Below are positions 12,805-64,000 of a stretch of 64,000 nt of DNA, piece by piece. Position 1 is the stretch's first letter; the number at the start of each line of letters is the position of its first letter. The notes below the pieces were generated by a model, which was not told where the DNA came from, searched no databases, and saw only the letters and a list, made by a program, of their open reading frames with translations. Source of the DNA: Thermoplasmata archaeon (GTDB lineage: Archaea; Thermoplasmatota; Thermoplasmata; Thermoplasmatales; Thermoplasmataceae); assembly GCA_021806295.1 (NCBI GenBank), contig JAJZXS010000041.1, positions 1,406 through 65,405 of the forward strand, read 5' to 3'. The position numbers and the translations under genes are program-made.

Positions 12805-12879
12805 GCTCCGATGGTGTAGTCAGGCCAAGCATTCCGGCCTTTCGAGCCGATGACTCGGGTTCAAATCCCGGTCGGAGCA
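12805..12879 (+). tRNA. tRNA-Glu (anticodon UUC)
   Basis: Hand-folded. Acceptor GCTCCGA/TCGGAGC, T arm TCGGG-TTCAAAT-CCCGG, anticodon loop CTTTCGA. A T-rich tract follows. Confidence 0.85.
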
Positions 12880-15510: not shown

Positions 15511-15583
15511 TGGGCCTGGCCGGATTTGAACCGGCGATTTCTTCCGTGTGAGGGAAGCGTCATAACCACTGGACCACAAGCCC
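15511..15583 (-). tRNA. tRNA-Val (anticodon CAC)
   Basis: The reverse complement folds with acceptor GGGCTTG/CAGGCCC, anticodon stem CTTCC/GGAAG with loop CTCACAC, and T arm GCCGG-TTCAAAT-CCGGC. Confidence 0.85.
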
Positions 15584-34118: not shown

Positions 34119-35747
34119 CTATGAAAGGCCGGTGACGCGCCCTTCACTATCAATGTCTATATTTTCTGCTGCAGGATGCTTTGGAAGCCCTGGCATGGTC
34201 ATAATGCTCCCCAGCACCGGAATAATGAAACGTGATCCTCCATTAACCATAACAGAATTCACCTTTACCCTGAAATTCCCTGGTGAATTCAGGAGTCCTG
34301 GATTATCAGAAATTGAAGCCTGTGTTTTTGCCATGCATATATAGAATCCTCCGAAACCATTTTCCTCTGCGTGTTTTATATCCAGCAATGCCTCCTTTGA
34401 AAAATCAACACCCTCAGCACCGTACACCTTTGTTGCTATTTTTTCTATTTTTGTTTTAACAGGGTCATCAAGCAAGTATGCATACTTTATCCTGCTGGTA
34501 TTTATGGAATCAAGCACGGCATTTGCCAGGTCTATCCCTCCTGCACCGCCATCAGAATATACCCTGGAAATTGCAAATTTTATATGTTTGTTTTCAAGCA
34601 TTTCAGATACTTTCTCTATCTCATTATTGGTATCCAGAGGATGGACGTTCAGGGCTATAACTGGATCTATCCCGAAGTTTCTAACATTTTCAACATGCCT
34701 GAACAGGTTTTGTATTCCGGTTACCATTGCCGGTATATTCTCCACATCTATATTCTTTGCACCGCCGTGATGCTTCATTGCCCTTATTGTGGCAACAATT
34801 ACTACTGCATCAACATTTATGCCAGCTTCTCTGGTAACTATGTCCATGAACTTTTCGAAACCCAGATCAGAACCGAATCCTGCTTCGGTAACTGTGTAAT
34901 CAAAAAGATTCATTGCAGCATAATCCCCCAGTATGCTTGATGTGCCATGGGCTATATTGCCGAATGGCCCTGTATGTATAATTGCCGGAACGTTTTCCGC
35001 ACTCTGCACCATATTGGGCTTCAGAGCGTCAGCAAGCAATGCTGCCATGGCCCCCTCTGCTTTTATATCCCTGGCAAAAACAGGCCTGTTCTTTGCTGTA
35101 TACCCTATAATTATATTTCCCAGCCTTTCTTTTAAATCATCATAGCCCTTTGACAATGCCATTATGGCCATTATTTCTGATGCCGCTGTTATCACAAAGG
35201 AATCATTTGCCAGAACCCCGTTGGACTTCGGTCCGTTTCCCACAATAATTGATCTGAGTGAACGGTCATCCATGTCTACGGTCCTGGGAAATGAGATTTT
35301 CTTTGGGTCTATTCCGGATTCATTTCCAAAATATATATGATTATTTATCATGGCTGAGAGCAAATTATGTGCTGCTGATATTGCCGGAAAATCTCCAGTA
35401 AAAATAAGATTAATTTTATCTGATGGCTCTACAGTGGATTTACCACCACCGGTTGCACCTCCCTTTACACCAAAGCATGGACCAAGCGATGGTTCTCTTA
35501 TTGCAATTCCCACGCTTTTTCCCAGGTGTTTCAGTGCCTGTGCAAGGCCTATTGCAGTTGTGGTTTTCCCCTCTCCTGCAGGTGTCGGGGTCATTGCTGT
35601 CATTAATATAATTTTCCCACGCTTTTTCCCAGGAACTGCATTTGAAATTCCGAGCTTGGCTGCGTATCTGCCATATAATTCAAAATCAGTTATTCCTGTA
35701 TCTTTTATAATATCTGTTATATCTTTCAGCATAACTGCAACATACAT
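34119..35747 (-). CDS. fhs: Formate--tetrahydrofolate ligase
   Basis: PTPAGEGKTTTAIGL P-loop. 542 aa, with a full-length family pattern. Confidence 0.95.
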   Translation of the reverse strand: MYVAVMLKDITDIIKDTGITDFELYGRYAAKLGISNAVPGKKRGKIILMTAMTPTPAGEGKTTTAIGLAQALKHLGKSVGIAIREPSLGPCFGVKGGATGGGKSTVEPSDKINLIFTGDFPAISAAHNLLSAMINNHIYFGNESGIDPKKISFPRTVDMDDRSLRSIIVGNGPKSNGVLANDSFVITAASEIMAIMALSKGYDDLKERLGNIIIGYTAKNRPVFARDIKAEGAMAALLADALKPNMVQSAENVPAIIHTGPFGNIAHGTSSILGDYAAMNLFDYTVTEAGFGSDLGFEKFMDIVTREAGINVDAVVIVATIRAMKHHGGAKNIDVENIPAMVTGIQNLFRHVENVRNFGIDPVIALNVHPLDTNNEIEKVSEMLENKHIKFAISRVYSDGGAGGIDLANAVLDSINTSRIKYAYLLDDPVKTKIEKIATKVYGAEGVDFSKEALLDIKHAEENGFGGFYICMAKTQASISDNPGLLNSPGNFRVKVNSVMVNGGSRFIIPVLGSIMTMPGLPKHPAAENIDIDSEGRVTGLS

Positions 35748-52075: not shown

Positions 52076-52148
52076 AGCTCCGTGGTGTAGTGGCCAAGCA
52101 TTACTGGCTCTGGACCAGCAGACGGCAGTTCGAATCTGCCCGGAGCTA
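52076..52148 (+). tRNA. tRNA-Gln (anticodon CUG)
   Basis: Hand-folded. Acceptor AGCTCCG/CGGAGCT, T arm GGCAG-TTCGAAT-CTGCC, anticodon loop CTCTGGA. Confidence 0.85.
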
Positions 52149-56959: not shown

Positions 56960-57925
56960 ATGATGCAGTTTAATGTTAGTTCTACAGAAAGAGATTATGA
57001 AACTGATTATGATGTAATTGTAATAGGTGCAGGTGCGGCAGGCTATTCTGCAGGTGTGTACATAAAAAGATCAGGCATGAGTGTTGCCATTCTGGAACGT
57101 GAATCGGTGCCAGGCGGAAATACTGCTGTGTCCCCACTTGTTGAGAACTATCTGGGGTATACAGCCATAGAGGGGGCTGACCTTGCCGAGAATTTCAGGA
57201 AGCACTATGCACAGTACGGAAAAATAATTACGGAAATAGATGTACGGGATATCAAAAAAGAGGGAGATAAATTCAAAATCACAACAAACCGTTCTGATTT
57301 CACAGCCAGGGCTGTTATAGTTACAACAGGGACAACCCATAGAAAAATGAACGTAAAGGGTGAGGATGAATATTACGGAAAAGGGATATCATACTGCTCC
57401 ACATGCGATGGCTATTTATTCAAGGGCAAGGACGTAGCAGTTATAGGGGGCGGCAATTCAGGCGCCATATCAGCCCTGTACCTTGATGGAATAGCCAAAA
57501 ATGTATCCATTATAGCACACTCGAAGATTAAAAAGTGTGAGGATGCCTATGTAAAATCCATAGATGAAAAGAAAATCCCATTTATACTGAACGCTGAAAC
57601 CGAAGAATTCCTGGGCGATGGAAAGAAGCTCAACGGATTAAAGTATAAAGACCTGAAAACCGGTGAGGAGAAGACTGTAAAACTGGATGGTGTATTTGTT
57701 TACATAGGTGTGATTCCACAGACATCCTTCCTGAAAAATATAGGGGTGAAACTTGACAATCACGGATTTATCCTTGGTGATGAGAAGGGAAGGACAAACA
57801 TTCCTGGAATATATGCGGCAGGAGACGTTCTATCCGGCAGTGAGGAACAGATAGCAACAGCTGTGGGTGATGGAAGCAAGGCTGCAATAACTCTTTATAC
57901 AGATCTAATAAATAAAAAGTTTTAA
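56960..57925 (+). CDS. trxB: Thioredoxin-reductase-like flavoprotein (low-Mr TrxR type)
   Basis: GAGAAG FAD motif, redox CSTCDG, second Rossmann GGGNSG, and C-terminal AAGDV. Confidence 0.85.
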   Translation: MMQFNVSSTERDYETDYDVIVIGAGAAGYSAGVYIKRSGMSVAILERESVPGGNTAVSPLVENYLGYTAIEGADLAENFRKHYAQYGKIITEIDVRDIKKEGDKFKITTNRSDFTARAVIVTTGTTHRKMNVKGEDEYYGKGISYCSTCDGYLFKGKDVAVIGGGNSGAISALYLDGIAKNVSIIAHSKIKKCEDAYVKSIDEKKIPFILNAETEEFLGDGKKLNGLKYKDLKTGEEKTVKLDGVFVYIGVIPQTSFLKNIGVKLDNHGFILGDEKGRTNIPGIYAAGDVLSGSEEQIATAVGDGSKAAITLYTDLINKKF

Positions 57926-57940
57926 ATTTATTCTTTTTCT

Positions 57941-58855
57941 ATGGAACCTATGAAGAGAGACATACTTTCCGTTGCTGATATGCAGAACGACCTTGAAGAT
58001 ATAATAGATTTATCTATTAGGCTCAAAAAGGATAGAACAATTCAATTTTCAGAAAAGAAGATTCTCGGAATGATTTTTGAAAAGCCCAGCACAAGAACAA
58101 GAATATCACTGGAAGCTGCAATGGAGCAGCTTAATGGGCATGCTATTTACCTGAGCCCGAAGGATATGCACCTTGGCGATGGCGAAACCATAGGAGATAC
58201 AGCCAGAGTAATGTCCAGGTTTCTTGATGTGATCTCATATAGGGCATTCGATTACAGGAATGTCAGGGAACTTGCAAAATATTCAACGGTACCGGTACTC
58301 AATGCACTGGACAATAGGGAGCATCCCATGCAGATTGTTGCAGACTTTATGACCATAATGGAGAAAAAGCACAGGCTTGAAGGGCTTAAAATGGCTTACA
58401 TAGGCGATGGAAACAATATGGCAAACTCACTTCTTATAGGTGCTGCGATAACAGGCATGGACATATCCGTGGCATGCCCGGAACACCATGACCCGGATCA
58501 GGACCTACTATACAGGGCCAGGGACATAGCCCTGAAAACAGGAAGCAGGATAGAGATAGTAAGAGACCCAAGAACTGCAGTGGATTCCTCAGATATAGTG
58601 TATACAGACGTATGGGTCTCCATGGGAGAGGAAAGCGAAAGGGAAAAAAAGGAAAAGGCCTTCAAAAATTTCCAGGTAAATGAGGATCTTGTAGATTTTG
58701 CAGATCGTAATTATATATTCATGCACTGCCTCCCTGCCAGAAGGGGCCTCGAAGTTACCGACAATGTAATAGACGGTATACACAGCGTTGTATTCGATGA
58801 GGCTGAAAACAGGCTTTACAGTGAAAAGGGAGTAATATATACTGTACTCTCATGA
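57941..58855 (+). CDS. argF: Ornithine carbamoyltransferase
   Basis: STRTR, HPMQ and HCLP motifs. Confidence 0.93.
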   Translation: MEPMKRDILSVADMQNDLEDIIDLSIRLKKDRTIQFSEKKILGMIFEKPSTRTRISLEAAMEQLNGHAIYLSPKDMHLGDGETIGDTARVMSRFLDVISYRAFDYRNVRELAKYSTVPVLNALDNREHPMQIVADFMTIMEKKHRLEGLKMAYIGDGNNMANSLLIGAAITGMDISVACPEHHDPDQDLLYRARDIALKTGSRIEIVRDPRTAVDSSDIVYTDVWVSMGEESEREKKEKAFKNFQVNEDLVDFADRNYIFMHCLPARRGLEVTDNVIDGIHSVVFDEAENRLYSEKGVIYTVLS

Positions 58856-60616: not shown

Positions 60617-61255
60617 TTATAACGACTTAAGATCATTCAGGTAATTTTTCCCCTCTGAAGTTATTGCATATTTAATGCCGTTCTTATATTCCATAACATC
60701 CACCATACCCTTCTGTATAAGATTTTCAAGCAATTTTATGGCATACTGGTAATTCAGGTTGCATTTGTATATTATCTTTGTAATGTTTATCCCCTCACTG
60801 GAATTAACTGTATCCAGTATTTCCTTGATTATAAATATTTTCTCACGGCGCTGTATTTTTTCATATTTATTCTCAGGTTGCTGGAGTGGCTTTTCCACTG
60901 GACTTGCAGGCACCTCAATTATCTTTGACATATTTGTATGGTTCAGTATTATCTTGTGGCATAGGGTAATATTAAATTTAAGTGATATTTCACGCAATTC
61001 CGGGGGAATCACACCTCCATATATTGCAATTTTTCTGGTATACTGATTCCTTGATACATTCTCTGTAAATTCTTTGATTTTCTTTATCTTGCTATCAGAA
61101 CTTCCCCTGAGCATAACCACTGGAATTTCTTCTCCTGTTTTTCTTGAGCGGAGGATCAGGTCCACCTTATATATATCCACCCTACTGCTGACTATTCCGT
61201 TATACACTTCTTCCCATTCATTGCTGTCAAAAACTATAATTGAATTCTTTACCAT
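60617..61255 (-). CDS. Winged-helix (HTH_45-like) DNA-binding protein with uncharacterised N-terminal domain, paralog B
   Basis: I trimmed the tracked ORF (to 61378) to ATG 61255. That start has AAGGTGG upstream and avoids overlap with the peptidase gene. C-terminal ITKIIYKCNLNYQYAIKLLENLIQKGMV...YAITSEGKNYL. Confidence 0.6.
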   Translation of the reverse strand: MVKNSIIVFDSNEWEEVYNGIVSSRVDIYKVDLILRSRKTGEEIPVVMLRGSSDSKIKKIKEFTENVSRNQYTRKIAIYGGVIPPELREISLKFNITLCHKIILNHTNMSKIIEVPASPVEKPLQQPENKYEKIQRREKIFIIKEILDTVNSSEGINITKIIYKCNLNYQYAIKLLENLIQKGMVDVMEYKNGIKYAITSEGKNYLNDLKSL

Positions 61256-61295: not shown

Positions 61296-62495
61296 TTACC
61301 ACCTAACATTTTTCGTTTTCCATGATTTGCTCTTTCTTCCCGGATACAGAAGCATGCCTGCAATCCCAACAAAAACAATTGCCAGTATGAGCTTCGAATA
61401 AATCAAAGCATATCCAAGATATGGAACAGAAAAGAGGACATGTCCTCTTACATCATATGTCGGCACCGGTTCAGGGTCCTTCGACGGATTTGCCACACCC
61501 TTGGTCCTGAAATACTCATGCCCGCCTATGTAGCATATCCTTATTACCTGATGGGCAAACAAAGTACCATTTTCCCAGGGTGCATTGAATACTATAATAT
61601 CACCAACTTTCACAGAGGATGTTTTTATGGGCCCGACAAAAAGTATAGATCCAGGTTTTATAACAGGATACATGCTCCCTGTGGGGTCGCCTATAACGAA
61701 GTAACTGTGATCGGAAATTCCGGGTGCTATTGCTATGGATGCAATGCTCACAATAACCACTATAACTATAAGCCACTTTGAGTTCTTAAGTGCCTTTTTT
61801 ATATTGATCCTATTTCCGGAGAACACGTTTTTGAAATTAAAGGAAGATTTCATTACTAAATCAGAGATGAATATTACCAGAGAAAGGGCAATCATTTCCC
61901 ACATGAGATAGTAATATTTCGAGACATTAATGTTGATAGAAAGTGATGTAAAAAGCATGAACATGAAAAGGAAAACAAGAATTCCTGCAAAATTAAATCC
62001 GGATTTATAAAAAATAAATAGTACTGTCAATGCCAGGAAAAATATGAAAATCATATTGAAAACTGCTATGGAAAATATTGTCTTTGTGTCTATCAGTACA
62101 TAATATGGGTAATAAAATAGTAAGACAGTAGACCCGAAAATTAACCCCTCTATGGCAAAATTCTTTATTCCTGATTTTTCAATGCAAAGCAGGACAAGGT
62201 ATAATGAAAATGCTGTAATGGCAGAATAGGCCAGCGTTGAGGGAAGAACGCCAGCATAGAAATGGAAAGTAATTTTATGGAATGCTATTCCTGGCTCCAG
62301 AAGAAAAATTTCCATAAATATTCCCAGGGCTGCGACCTTTACTATATCCCTGTTAATGTTTAGCCTTATGCTGAAAACCATCGGAAGCAGCGGGATAAGT
62401 GATACCAGCACTGTTATCCATGTATTTTTCAGATAAGCTAAGGATAGCTGGTAGACTATTATGTACGCAAGCACAAGAGACAGTATTCTTTTCAT
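61296..62495 (-). CDS. Archaeal/ER-type (SipW-like, S26B) signal peptidase I fused to a ~235 aa polytopic N-terminal membrane domain
   Basis: The C-terminal ~160 aa carries GSMYP (Ser), VGDIIVF, AHQVI (His) and TKGVANPSKDP (Asp), plus flanking TM anchors. The N-terminal part has about 7-8 hydrophobic segments. Confidence 0.7.
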   Translation of the reverse strand: MKRILSLVLAYIIVYQLSLAYLKNTWITVLVSLIPLLPMVFSIRLNINRDIVKVAALGIFMEIFLLEPGIAFHKITFHFYAGVLPSTLAYSAITAFSLYLVLLCIEKSGIKNFAIEGLIFGSTVLLFYYPYYVLIDTKTIFSIAVFNMIFIFFLALTVLFIFYKSGFNFAGILVFLFMFMLFTSLSININVSKYYYLMWEMIALSLVIFISDLVMKSSFNFKNVFSGNRINIKKALKNSKWLIVIVVIVSIASIAIAPGISDHSYFVIGDPTGSMYPVIKPGSILFVGPIKTSSVKVGDIIVFNAPWENGTLFAHQVIRICYIGGHEYFRTKGVANPSKDPEPVPTYDVRGHVLFSVPYLGYALIYSKLILAIVFVGIAGMLLYPGRKSKSWKTKNVRW

Positions 62496-63442
62496 TTCTC
62501 AACCCCTCTGTAGGAATAGACATAATTTTTGAAATCATGGGAGACGAAGAAAAGTGAACTCTTTTTTATATAGAATAATGGTTCATGGTAGGCATCGGAT
62601 AATTTGACCAGTTCATCAAATGTATCCACTTTTGTCACAATACCCTTAGGCATTGCTTCCACATCTATTATCCTGTCACCGAACTCCTGGAGTTTCAGAT
62701 CCAGTTTGCTTTTCTTCTTTGGCACACCAATGTACGTGACAGCCAGGAAAACAAAAAGTATGGCTGATGGAACTATTATTATATATCCATATAAAGCTGG
62801 CAGTCCTATTATGGGCTTGCTGCCGTAGGCATCTTTTATATCCACTGTTCCGGTCATGCTGGCCGGGCTGCCATATTTAACCGTATAATAATGATTCCCC
62901 TGGCTTATCAGAAGGTATGTGCTTGAGGAGATTCCACTAACAGGATCCTGGACAGTTATATTTATGTCAACTGTGGGGCTTGTTCCTGTATATCCAAGCT
63001 GGCTATCTATCTCAGCCGACTGATTATAAAGGCATGAAAGGTTTAAAGGAATCACCATGCCTGAAATAGTCTGGCTTCCGTTGAATTCCAGTGTTGAACT
63101 GTTTGAGCTGAATAACTTGGACCATGAAGGGTTTGATGATATTACACCTATGGAATAGTCAATAAATACGGTTTGTTTACTGGAAGATAGAAAATTTGCG
63201 GTTATATATACTGTCATATTTTTCAGTAGTTTTTCATATATAACGGTTGGATTGTAAAGGTGATTTGAACTATACAGGCTATTATTTGTTATATTGGCCT
63301 CAAGGTTTACCTGCGCGCTTGATACAAAATTGGTTTCAGGAATTTCTTTGCTATGCTCCCTGGGTTCAAGTATAATAAATGAAGAAAAAATAATAGCGAC
63401 TGCCAGAATTATTATAATCGCCAGATGCAGTTTTTTATTCAT
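62492..63442 (-). CDS. Two-TM protein with a sequon-rich extracytoplasmic domain and small cytoplasmic C-terminal domain (DUF5305-like architecture)
   Basis: N-terminal TM (LHLAIIIILAVAIIFSSFIIL), eight N-x-S/T sequons by my count, and a second TM (YGYIIIVPSAILFVFLAVTYIGV). ATGA overlap with the peptidase gene. Confidence 0.55.
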   Translation of the reverse strand: MNKKLHLAIIIILAVAIIFSSFIILEPREHSKEIPETNFVSSAQVNLEANITNNSLYSSNHLYNPTVIYEKLLKNMTVYITANFLSSSKQTVFIDYSIGVISSNPSWSKLFSSNSSTLEFNGSQTISGMVIPLNLSCLYNQSAEIDSQLGYTGTSPTVDINITVQDPVSGISSSTYLLISQGNHYYTVKYGSPASMTGTVDIKDAYGSKPIIGLPALYGYIIIVPSAILFVFLAVTYIGVPKKKSKLDLKLQEFGDRIIDVEAMPKGIVTKVDTFDELVKLSDAYHEPLFYIKKSSLFFVSHDFKNYVYSYRGVEK

Positions 63443-63485
63443 ATAAATTGGATGTATGTATTAGTTTAACCTTTATTTATTAAAA

Positions 63486-63519
63486 GTACTGAGTTATGAT
63501 ATTTATTTAATATCAGTAC
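63486..63519. promoter_or_regulatory. Inverted repeat GTACTGA-N20-TCAGTAC in the divergent promoter region
   Basis: Perfect 7-bp arms at 63486-63492 and 63513-63519, separated by an AT-rich spacer. It lies between the two divergent start codons (63442 and 63651). Confidence 0.3.
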
Positions 63520-63650
63520 ATGATATACTTATGTATTATAAAAACTATTATTTTTTACCTGTTTTATGGTCTAACTCTTTTAATTACTGCACCATATTTT
63601 AATTTCCTGTTTTATTATTTACAGATAACAGATTAATTTCTGGTGACTAA

Positions 63651-64000
63651 ATGAACAAAAAGTTAGCCGTATTATTGGTAGTGCCAATTCTTATTGCAAT
63701 GGGAGGAACATTCGCTTTCTCCGCATTCTCTGGGAGTTCTAGCGTTGCCATTAATAGCACAGCAGGCCATTTGACCTGGGATGAAAGTGGGATATTGGTA
63801 GCTACGAATGCAAATAACACACCATTGACCGTAGAGGGTCCAAATGGGGTTATATATGAGATAGGAGCGTCTGAACCATATGCGCCCGGCAGCAGCCATC
63901 TAAATCTTGGAACTCTAGCAATGAGCACTGCAAACAGCGGGAAGGAATATGTCGTGAATGCAACCAACTTTGCGCCTGGTGAATATATAGAGGTACAGGT
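63651..64000 (+). CDS. 5' part of a secreted protein with a SipW-cognate (TasA/camelysin-type) signal peptide; runs off the window
   Basis: ATG at 63651 is preceded by GGTGA 4 nt upstream, and the frame is open to the window end. Translation: MNKKLAVLLVVPILIAMGGTFAFSAFSGSSSVAINSTAGHLTWDES...NFAPGEYIEVQ. It is not in the ORF track because no stop lies in the window. Confidence 0.65.
   Translation, partial: MNKKLAVLLVVPILIAMGGTFAFSAFSGSSSVAINSTAGHLTWDESGILVATNANNTPLTVEGPNGVIYEIGASEPYAPGSSHLNLGTLAMSTANSGKEYVVNATNFAPGEYIEVQ

Follow-up and report, generated by a model that had tools for sequence, protein, structure and literature searches.

Genes for extracellular fiber subunits that lie beside the gene of a dedicated signal peptidase have been described in several groups of archaea. 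AbpX, a TasA-superfamily fiber protein of Pyrodictium abyssi, is encoded in loci that also specify a dedicated type I signal peptidase (SPase I) with ten transmembrane (TM) helices, a DUF5305 accessory protein, and regulators (bioRxiv 10.64898/2026.01.04.697558; PDB 9SJ2, 9RHP). In Haloarcula, the gene for the peptidase TafD is located beside the DUF5305 gene tafG and is genetically required for the processing of TafA and for fimbriae (PMC11821415). Clusters of genes for SPase I, DUF5305, and a small subunit also are found in Thermococcales and Archaeoglobus (PMC11821415), and the module that comprises a subunit assembled by donor-strand complementation (DSC), a dedicated SPase I, and DUF5305 has been published for haloarchaea, Thermococcales, Archaeoglobus, and Thermoproteota (PMC11821415; bioRxiv 10.64898/2026.01.04.697558). 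Archaeal bundling pili are TasA homologs, and the Pfam family PF12389 has been mapped in archaea, with Thermoplasmatales not among the orders listed (Wang et al., 2022, PMC9245690). The DNA under study here is a 64,000-nucleotide stretch of contig JAJZXS010000041.1 (the window) from the archaeon Ferroplasma sp., at the right-hand end of which a gene for a secreted protein (the subunit) lies divergently from an operon for a DUF5305 protein and a signal peptidase.

The locus is best read as the Ferroplasma version of the archaeal module in which a TasA-superfamily fiber is accompanied by its own signal peptidase, a reading to which we assign a probability of about 0.68. Functional coupling of the peptidase and the subunit is very probable, and that the subunit actually forms fibers is somewhat better than an even prospect. 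The initial annotation of this DNA had proposed a secreted fiber or matrix gene coupled to its own S26B peptidase, which is borne out in part by gene context, synteny, and remote homology, and had known of no such system in a wall-less acidophile lineage. As the module has been published in other archaea, the claim of novelty is weakened. Its occurrence in Thermoplasmatales is unpublished: neither Thermoplasma nor Thermoplasmatales is mentioned in PMC9245690, in PMC11821415, or in the AbpX preprint, and a literature search that combined TasA with Thermoplasmatales, and that also covered DUF5305, found no description of the locus.

Organization of the Locus

The features of the subunit gene and of the divergent operon, in positions of the window, are as follows.

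63651-64000, + strand: candidate fiber-subunit gene, 5′ part (116 of 229 codons); open reading frame (ORF) with full-length product P0013/P0247 of 229 amino acids
63651-63716, + strand: signal peptide of the subunit; n-region MNKK, h-region LAVLLVVPILIAM, c-region GGTFA
63705-63734, + strand: most conserved segment of the family, G19-G-T-F-A-F-S-A-F-S-G28; column counts over 90 sequences
63777-63809, + strand: candidate donor strand W43-D-E-S-G-I-L-V-A-T-N53; alignment to AbpX and strand of the model
63780-64000, continuing past the window end, + strand: codons 44-229 of the subunit gene, hypervariable between alleles; strain comparison
63443-63650, no strand: divergent intergenic region, 208 bp, AT-rich; presumed promoters for the subunit gene on one side and the DUF5305-peptidase operon on the other
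62492-63442, - strand: DUF5305 protein, 316 amino acids; Pfam PF17231; TM1, ectodomain with 8 sequons, TM2, cytoplasmic tail of ~75 amino acids
61785-62495, - strand: N-terminal polytopic membrane domain of the peptidase, residues 1-237; ~8 hydrophobic segments by hydropathy
61296-61784, - strand: SPase I catalytic domain of the archaeal/ER type (S26B); TIGR02228

The ATG of the subunit gene (63651-63653) is preceded, 4 nt upstream, by the sequence GGTGA (63642-63646) that resembles a ribosome-binding site. The product starts with MNKKLAVLLVVPILIAMGGTFAFSAFSG and the ORF leaves the window after 116 codons. Contigs that carry identical copies of the DUF5305 gene showed that the truncated ORF specifies 229 amino acids in full; the proteins P0013 and P0247 from these contigs are 100% identical to the subunit over the 116 residues available in the window. 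On the opposite strand, the TGA of the DUF5305 ORF overlaps the ATG of the peptidase gene as ATGA (62492-62495). The spacer between the two divergent transcription units is ~99% conserved between strains and presumably carries the promoters of both.

The initial annotation, which was made from the DNA letters and ORF translations, had described an ORF at 63651 whose signal peptide contains GGTFAFSAF, a divergent spacer of 208 bp, a two-TM sequon-rich protein whose gene overlaps that of an archaeal/ER-type signal peptidase, and a winged-helix gene 40 nt further on, in a Thermoplasmatales-like archaeon. All of these elements were recovered at the positions given here, and the other contigs provided the complete subunit. 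The two-TM protein was identified further as DUF5305, and the extra 237-residue N-terminal domain of the peptidase had been missed.

The Subunit and Its Signal Motif

Homologs of the subunit are present in Acidiplasma, Ferroplasma, and Picrophilus and are annotated invariably as hypothetical. A search of 1.84 billion representative sequences with a family profile yielded 164 matches at E ≤ 1e-3, among which the few named representatives all belong to Thermoplasmata, e.g., Ca. Sysuiplasma. In an alignment of 90 family sequences the mean column identity was just 23%, and the best conserved positions of the whole protein were clustered in the signal motif: G19, A22 (90/90), F23, S24, A25, F/W26, and G28. 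The corresponding pattern A[FY]S[AQST][FWY][STAQ]G occurs a single time when the six frames of the whole 64-kb window are taken together, and the signal motif was found once in each related locus, on every occasion in the subunit gene. Presumably the cognate peptidase recognizes the GGTFAFSAFSG segment, within which the mature N-terminus would also begin. The signal peptides of TasA and camelysin are cleaved at GGGTxA↓xF. By analogy, the signal peptide of the subunit would be cleaved after the invariant A22: GGTFA↓F pairs with Bacillus GGGTYA↓YF both by eye and in a low-probability segment of a profile alignment (hhalign) that pairs GGTFAFSAF...AGHLTW with GGGTYAYFSD...AGTLDF, co-linear with the hairpin match described below. 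The signal peptide is of the Sec type and lacks a twin arginine.

Mature P0013 contains 7.7% Asp plus Glu and 1.0% Lys plus Arg, with a pI of 4.1 that reflects the near absence of basic residues; distant members of the family have 2.9-5.5% Asp plus Glu. Ser, Thr, and Asn together account for 34% of the mature protein, which has 7 sequons. This composition is typical of exposed proteins in extreme acidophiles. No Pfam or NCBIfam model scored above its threshold with either the partial or the full-length subunit. In addition, the PDB chain 9YGV_R ("PsaR," 132 amino acids) matched positions 6-54 of the family profile (63666-63812 in the window) at E ~0.01 with two different profiles.

The Signal Peptidase, Its Putative Partner, and Their Linkage to the Subunit

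The peptidase ORF (61296-62495, - strand) encodes 399 amino acids that include the motifs GSMYP (S274), AHQVI (H315), and SKDP (D340). The protein scored 92.8 bits against TIGR02228 compared to a cut-off of 51.85, and 59.1 bits against the SipW equivalog NF046067 for which the cut-off is 190. The catalytic domain also aligned to human SEC11A (7P2P; E = 0.0039) with GSMEP and GSMYP in register. Judged by these matches, the protein is a signal peptidase I of the archaeal/ER type (S26B) with the Ser, His, and Asp residues in place. The whole protein has ~10 hydrophobic segments in hydropathy plots, of which an anchor TM (238-262) and a C-terminal TM (359-386) that precedes a K/R-rich tail belong to the catalytic domain; as the loops before residues 238-262 and after residues 359-386 are K/R-rich, the catalytic domain should be located outside the cell. 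Residues 1-237 matched no Pfam or NCBIfam family, and this polytopic domain is retained in all of the homologs of ~390-400 amino acids. The peptidase is 95% identical to WMT51810.1 of Ferroplasma, and cluster members labeled "signal peptidase I [Ferroplasma sp.]" share a contig with the subunit. The product of the overlapping upstream gene matched Pfam PF17231 with 37.8 bits (cut-off 29). It has hydrophobic segments at residues 1-28 and 211-242 with the 8 N-x-S/T sequons in between, a topology like that reported for the DUF5305 protein of AbpX loci. Proteins of the DUF5305 family, TafG among them, are described as peptidase partners in PMC11821415 and in the AbpX preprint, and a similar accessory role beside the signal peptidase is presumed for the Ferroplasma protein.

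The genes for the subunit, the DUF5305 protein, the TM-peptidase, and a winged helix-turn-helix (wHTH) protein are found together in five other loci: those of a Ferroplasmaceae metagenome-assembled genome (MAG; L007), Acidiplasma aeolicum (L008), Picrophilus torridus (L016; AE017261), and two distant Thermoplasmata MAGs (L009, L010). In the latter pair the gene order is rearranged, and identities have fallen to ~30-36% for the subunit and 35-41% for the peptidase. Thus, the gene set is syntenic across genera, and the signal motif co-occurs with the peptidase gene in related genomes, as the initial annotation had required for its proposal to stand. Further paralogs of the subunit with the same signal motif are encoded elsewhere, away from any peptidase gene: two in P. 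torridus and a tandem pair in Ferroplasma CP133597.1. These genes are embedded among housekeeping genes (CP133597.1, 731-744 kb, L023 4830-5606 and 6001-6831; P. torridus, L022 6001-6720), and the products of the Ferroplasma tandem pair contain low-complexity inserts in which Pro, Asn, Trp, and Cys are abundant.

The existence of paralogs that are not accompanied by a peptidase suggests that one peptidase serves several substrates. This pattern would fit an alternative in which the 10-TM peptidase and the DUF5305 protein constitute the general housekeeping signal peptidase complex and the subunit is merely one abundant substrate, a proposition that is compatible with the latter being a fiber subunit but that we regard as unlikely on balance. 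No second S26 gene was found in the 64-kb window with tblastn, and the homology search with the peptidase recovered only proteins of ~390-400 amino acids from Ferroplasma, Acidiplasma, and Picrophilus, with no short paralog, although that search, being based on shared words of five residues, would overlook a housekeeping enzyme of divergent sequence. Moreover, the AbpX preprint likens the combination of DUF5305 and SPase I to the eukaryotic signal peptidase complex (bioRxiv 10.64898/2026.01.04.697558). However, the linkage of the peptidase and DUF5305 genes with a motif-bearing gene survives rearrangement in the distant MAGs. The signal peptidases of Thermoplasma reportedly are distinct "hybrid" enzymes, which also was counted against a housekeeping role. 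Furthermore, the equivalent peptidase TafD is non-essential in Haloarcula and is specific for the fimbrial subunit (PMC11821415).

A weak tblastn match with the peptidase at 35211-35348 was rejected as spurious, as it falls inside the gene for formate-tetrahydrofolate ligase (34119-35747, - strand), an ordinary housekeeping gene in the window.

Relationship of the Subunit to the TasA Superfamily

The relationship of the subunit to fiber proteins of known structure was examined by comparison of the family profile (A3) with all PDB sequences. The best match was AbpX (9SJ2_C) with E = 2.5e-4 and 24.2 bits. The alignment covered AbpX residues 1-119 and ~115 profile positions. The profile also matched sc-AbpX (9RHP) at E = 1.3e-3 and TasA (5OF1/8AUR) at E ~0.08, and the E-value for AbpX fell as the diversity of the profile increased, from 0.0097 to 0.0047 to 0.00025. 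These values point to detectable homology, by a modest margin, with a structurally solved member of the TasA superfamily (TasA, AbpA, AbpX, CanA, threads, Tafi), to which the subunit probably belongs. The Pyrobaculum protein AbpA (7UEG) did not appear in the list of PDB sequence matches with E ≤ 10 or in the top 50 of the structural search described below. Within the AbpX alignment, W43 and E45 of the subunit correspond to W2 and E4 of the AbpX donor strand, and the spacing to the PG hairpin is 65 residues compared to 61 in AbpX. Position 43 is aromatic in 77 of the 90 family sequences, and position 45 is E, N, or Q in 76 (E in 36/90, N or Q in 40/90). The aligned W43 segment is located 20 residues from the presumed mature N-terminus.

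Comparison by hhalign with genuine Bacillus TasA-family proteins, which were taken from plasmids, gave 76% probability on a PGxxVxxxxxxxNxG hairpin; a TasA sequence served only as bait. With both these proteins and the AbpX fragment, just 29-36 hairpin columns were aligned at moderate probability. The hairpin (profile positions ~100-150; 63948-64000 onward in the window) also matched giant repeat proteins of 1000-5600 amino acids in up to 21 stretches each. Its presence in giant repeat adhesins means that the hairpin is not specific to fiber subunits and on its own proves little.

Peptidase_M73 (PF12389) was the top Pfam family for 29 of 44 close members, in all cases below threshold (best E = 5.8e-5), and the match was limited to positions ~36-78 of the 196 in the profile, i.e., the hairpin. 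When 69 distant members were searched against Pfam for a transitive link to PF12389, none passed and 6 of the 69 had E ≤ 0.01. TIGR04090 (BsaA, SipW-dependent) was the sole NCBIfam match. The sub-threshold Peptidase_M73 matches might be taken to indicate a camelysin-like metalloprotease, which is highly improbable: the mature subunit has no HExxH motif, no Cys, and few His residues, and the confinement of the matches to the hairpin region argues in the same direction. The protease activity of the Peptidase_M73 family is itself doubtful. The metalloprotease assignment was rejected on the lack of HExxH.

Two AlphaFold2 models of the subunit, with predicted local distance difference test (pLDDT) values of 80.0 and 86.6, contain a β-rich domain which in the better model is all-β with one helix. 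In the modeled monomer, the strand at residues 42-52 is confident (block pLDDT 96), and residues 27-36 have values below 50 and are disordered. The models and the AbpX alignment thereby offer two candidate donor strands, residues 23-36 or residues 42-52.

A number of results weigh against the assignment of the subunit to TasA-type fibers. P0013 scored 20.6 bits (E = 4.3e-4) with Peptidase_M73, below the gathering threshold of 22.5, and TIGR04088 (34 positions, cut-off 19 bits) gave no match at E ≤ 10 with P0013, with four distant members, or with the isolated 39-residue N-terminus, compared to 50.6 bits for a Bacillus paranthracis TasA-family protein as positive control. Accordingly, the placement of the signal peptide in the SipW-cognate class by the initial annotation did not hold, nor did the protein reach the threshold of the Peptidase_M73 model, which that annotation had named for a search. 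Distant family members match DUF7507 and DUF11, and the hairpin also is found in repeat adhesins of the DUF11/CARDB/DUF7507 type. When the two models were compared with the PDB by Foldseek, no significant neighbor emerged: the top matches were arrestins, integrin domains, and phosphorylase β-sandwiches with TM-scores of ~0.1-0.25, the TasA fiber 8AUR ranked seventh with the better model at a non-significant E = 0.045, and AbpX and AbpA lay outside the top 50. The earlier description of the protein as TasA-like is supported at the level of sequence by the remote homology to AbpX, and the structural comparison is not counted as evidence for a TasA fold. AbpX homologs contain ~15% Asp plus Glu (12.2% in the 131 recovered AbpX residues) compared to 7.7% in the subunit, and with so few acidic residues the calcium clamp of AbpX is unlikely to operate here at pH ~1. 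The locus contains no evident gene for a minor, tip, or anchor subunit, and none of these genes has so far been connected with a filament. Furthermore, three Picrophilus paralogs (Q6L0J5, Q6L027, Q6L304) are absent from the published P. torridus secretome of 30 proteins (PMC8345856).

Some of these results would be explained if the subunit were instead a glycoprotein that is secreted or exposed at the surface but does not polymerize, e.g., an adhesin of the Ig/CARDB type or an envelope component, and that shares the β-hairpin with TasA-like proteins by chance. The failure to find a structural neighbor, the restriction of confident hhalign columns to the hairpin, and the adhesin matches in the same region of the profile are all in keeping with this proposal, as is the strand at residues 42-52 which aligns to the AbpX donor strand but is an integral part of the monomer model. 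In contrast, the HMMER alignment with AbpX extends well beyond the hairpin, and the DUF5305/10-TM-peptidase context is that reported for loci of DSC fibers. In addition, the 15-20 N-terminal residues of the mature protein are strongly conserved yet predicted to be disordered, as expected for a donor strand. A monomeric glycoprotein consequently appears rather improbable to us, and a TasA-superfamily fiber subunit remains the preferred interpretation.

Allelic Variation and the Downstream Region

Contigs from strain variants (L001, L003, L004) are ~99% identical to the window from position 57001 to codon W43 of the subunit gene. Over codons 44-229 nucleotide identity drops to 74-76% (dN ~0.2, dS ~0.77), and it returns to 97% in the downstream gene. 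The hypervariable stretch was delimited by strain comparison in the following contigs.

L001: 217-777
L003: 653-1213
L019: 145-705

The abrupt fall in identity, confined to codons 44-229, indicates on sequence grounds that the subunit alleles are old and are swapped by recombination in an otherwise clonal background, as is the case for exposed pilins. Surface exposure of the protein fits both with the 7 sequons and with the confinement of the hypervariability to this part of the gene. Many assemblies break at the subunit gene.

Contigs of the same strain that continue past the window end (L019 995-10559, L020 987-8792) have a gene for a 421-amino acid tyrosine integrase directly downstream of the subunit gene, followed by ~15 small unannotated ORFs and a gene for a 667-amino acid protein. 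The region resembles a provirus or an integrated mobile element. Alternatively, the same position is occupied by a gene for an IS256-type transposase (Transposase_mut; L018 925-2073 and L021 1399-3607), which in L021 is accompanied by an AbiEii/AbiEi toxin-antitoxin pair.

Regulators and Neighboring Genes

Three further genes follow the peptidase gene on the same strand and were assigned to the operon.

60617-61255, - strand: winged-helix protein 1, 212 amino acids; PF14947 (HTH_45), 49.9 bits
59662-60270, - strand: winged-helix protein 2, 202 amino acids; PF14947 (HTH_45), 45.9 bits
58957-59517, - strand: small membrane protein, 186 amino acids; homologs adjoin a wHTH gene in related loci

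The ATG of winged-helix protein 1 (61255) is located 40 nt past the peptidase stop codon. The protein consists of an N-terminal domain of ~135 amino acids that matches no known family and a C-terminal HTH_45 domain, is syntenic in all five related loci, and is the presumed regulator of the locus. Winged-helix protein 2 is its tandem paralog (~31% identity) and is kept in the Ferroplasmaceae MAG and in A. aeolicum; an N-terminal domain of ~130 amino acids with no assigned family is common to both paralogs. Homologs of the 186-residue membrane protein, which belongs to no Pfam or NCBIfam family, adjoin the wHTH gene in the same two loci and in Picrophilus. As the gene is at the edge of the neighborhood, membership of the module is tentative. 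In the Picrophilus locus (L016 6794-8013), the pair of genes for the wHTH and the small TM protein adjoins the subunit gene.

The module is bordered by the gene for ornithine carbamoyltransferase (57941-58855, + strand), an ordinary housekeeping gene. In the window, only three tRNA genes matched Rfam at its gathering thresholds, at 12805-12879 (+ strand), 15511-15583 (- strand), and 52076-52148 (+ strand).

Proposed Mechanism and Significance

If the locus is a TasA-superfamily fiber module, the 229-residue subunit would be exported by the Sec pathway and its signal peptide removed at GGTFA↓FSAFSG by the neighboring S26B peptidase with its extra 8-helix domain, probably together with the co-translated DUF5305 protein. 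The mature subunit, of low charge and rich in Ser, Thr, and Asn, would be N-glycosylated. Subunits may then polymerize head-to-tail outside the cell, each donating an N-terminal strand to the next by DSC, so as to form thin surface or matrix filaments. The winged-helix proteins might regulate the divergent promoters in the 208-bp region, and the paralogous subunits encoded elsewhere, with the same signal motif, could be processed by the same peptidase. The direct results are the identities of the genes, the synteny, the conservation and uniqueness of the signal motif, the remote homology to AbpX, and the hypervariability of the mature domain between strains; the cleavage site, the pairing of peptidase and substrate, polymerization with its donor strand, and regulation are inferred.

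A more far-reaching version is that the family constitutes an unrecognized acid-adapted branch of the TasA superfamily whose heavily glycosylated filaments are calcium-independent, are formed at pH ~1 by archaea devoid of a cell wall as a main protein scaffold of acid-mine-drainage biofilms, and are held directly in the membrane by the complex of DUF5305 and peptidase. Strains would exchange the exposed domain, from codon 44 onward, as old allelic cassettes for evasion of viruses or for kin recognition, and the lack of significant PDB neighbors would reflect a genuine variant of the fold. This extended proposal is doubtful.

If correct, the interpretation of the locus as a fiber module would extend the TasA-superfamily system to Thermoplasmatales (Ferroplasma, Acidiplasma, Picrophilus, and related MAGs from acid mine drainage), and would fill an annotation gap, the subunits of this lineage all being labeled hypothetical and caught by no Pfam or NCBIfam model. 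Ferroplasma is devoid of a cell wall, and these organisms dominate biofilms in acid mine drainage. A defined gene for a matrix or adhesion fiber would provide a handle on biofilm cohesion at pH ~1, and would show how a donor-strand fiber is built and anchored by a cell that has no wall and in the absence of carboxylate-calcium chemistry. The GGTFA-FSAFSG element and the 10-TM peptidase form a testable pair for substrate selection by S26B enzymes, and the sharp allelic hot spot marks the subunit as a protein on which selection acts at the strain level in nature. Overall, the module is real and conserved and is of a recently defined kind, and so is not categorically new; it is of moderate interest, which derives from the lineage, the adaptation to acid, and the allelic behavior.

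Comparison with Known Systems

Among the characterized systems, AbpA/AbpB of Pyrobaculum calidifontis (PMC9245690; PDB 7UEG) provide an example of a donor-strand filament of the TasA superfamily that is processed by SPase I and connects cells within biofilms. The Pyrobaculum abp operon differs from the Ferroplasma locus in having no dedicated peptidase nearby and in possessing an AbpB/TapA-like partner of which there is no counterpart here.

The Bacillus tapA-sipW-tasA operon and camelysin CalY resemble the locus in that an S26B peptidase gene adjoins that of a secreted subunit, a β-sandwich in Bacillus and predicted to be β-rich in Ferroplasma. There is near identity between the c-region GGTFA↓F and Bacillus GGGT[YFW]A↓[YFA]F, the sequence AG[TH]L is located ~15 residues downstream, and the NLxPG[DE]...N.G[ST] hairpin is common to both. 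In contrast, the thresholds of TIGR04088 and PF12389 are not reached in Ferroplasma, an insertion of ~55 residues separates the N-terminal segment from the hairpin, a TapA-like gene is lacking, and SipW lacks the polytopic N-terminal domain. To our knowledge, DUF5305 is absent from the Bacillus operon.

The tafA-G (Tafi) locus of Haloarcula hispanica, like that in Ferroplasma, includes genes for a peptidase (TafD), a DUF5305 protein (TafG), and a transcription regulator beside the subunit gene (PMC11821415; PMC12337348); the related SPase I-DUF5305-DUF1102 clusters of Thermococcales and Archaeoglobus were included in the comparison. Processing of the subunit by TafD was shown experimentally in Tafi, and assembly there is by strand donation; the corresponding steps are proposed for Ferroplasma. 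In contrast, the Tafi signal peptides are of the Tat type instead of the Sec type, TafD has four TM helices and two external domains in place of the 8-TM N-terminal extension, and the Ferroplasma subunit matches neither the DUF1102 nor the TafA-like families.

AbpX loci are the closest to the system described here. Differences are apparent: sequence identity is very low, there is no significant Foldseek match, a conserved extra N-terminal segment of 20 residues, FSAFSGSSSVAINSTAGHLT, precedes the aligned strand, the Ferroplasma subunit has 7-8 sequons and is predicted to be heavily glycosylated, and the Thermoplasmatota lineage is unreported for AbpX. Nevertheless, AbpX is the nearest solved sequence relative of the subunit, and its loci likewise combine a TIGR02228-type SPase I with approximately ten TM helices, a DUF5305 gene, and regulators, with an aromatic and an acidic or amide residue of the subunit aligned to W2 and E4 of the donor strand.

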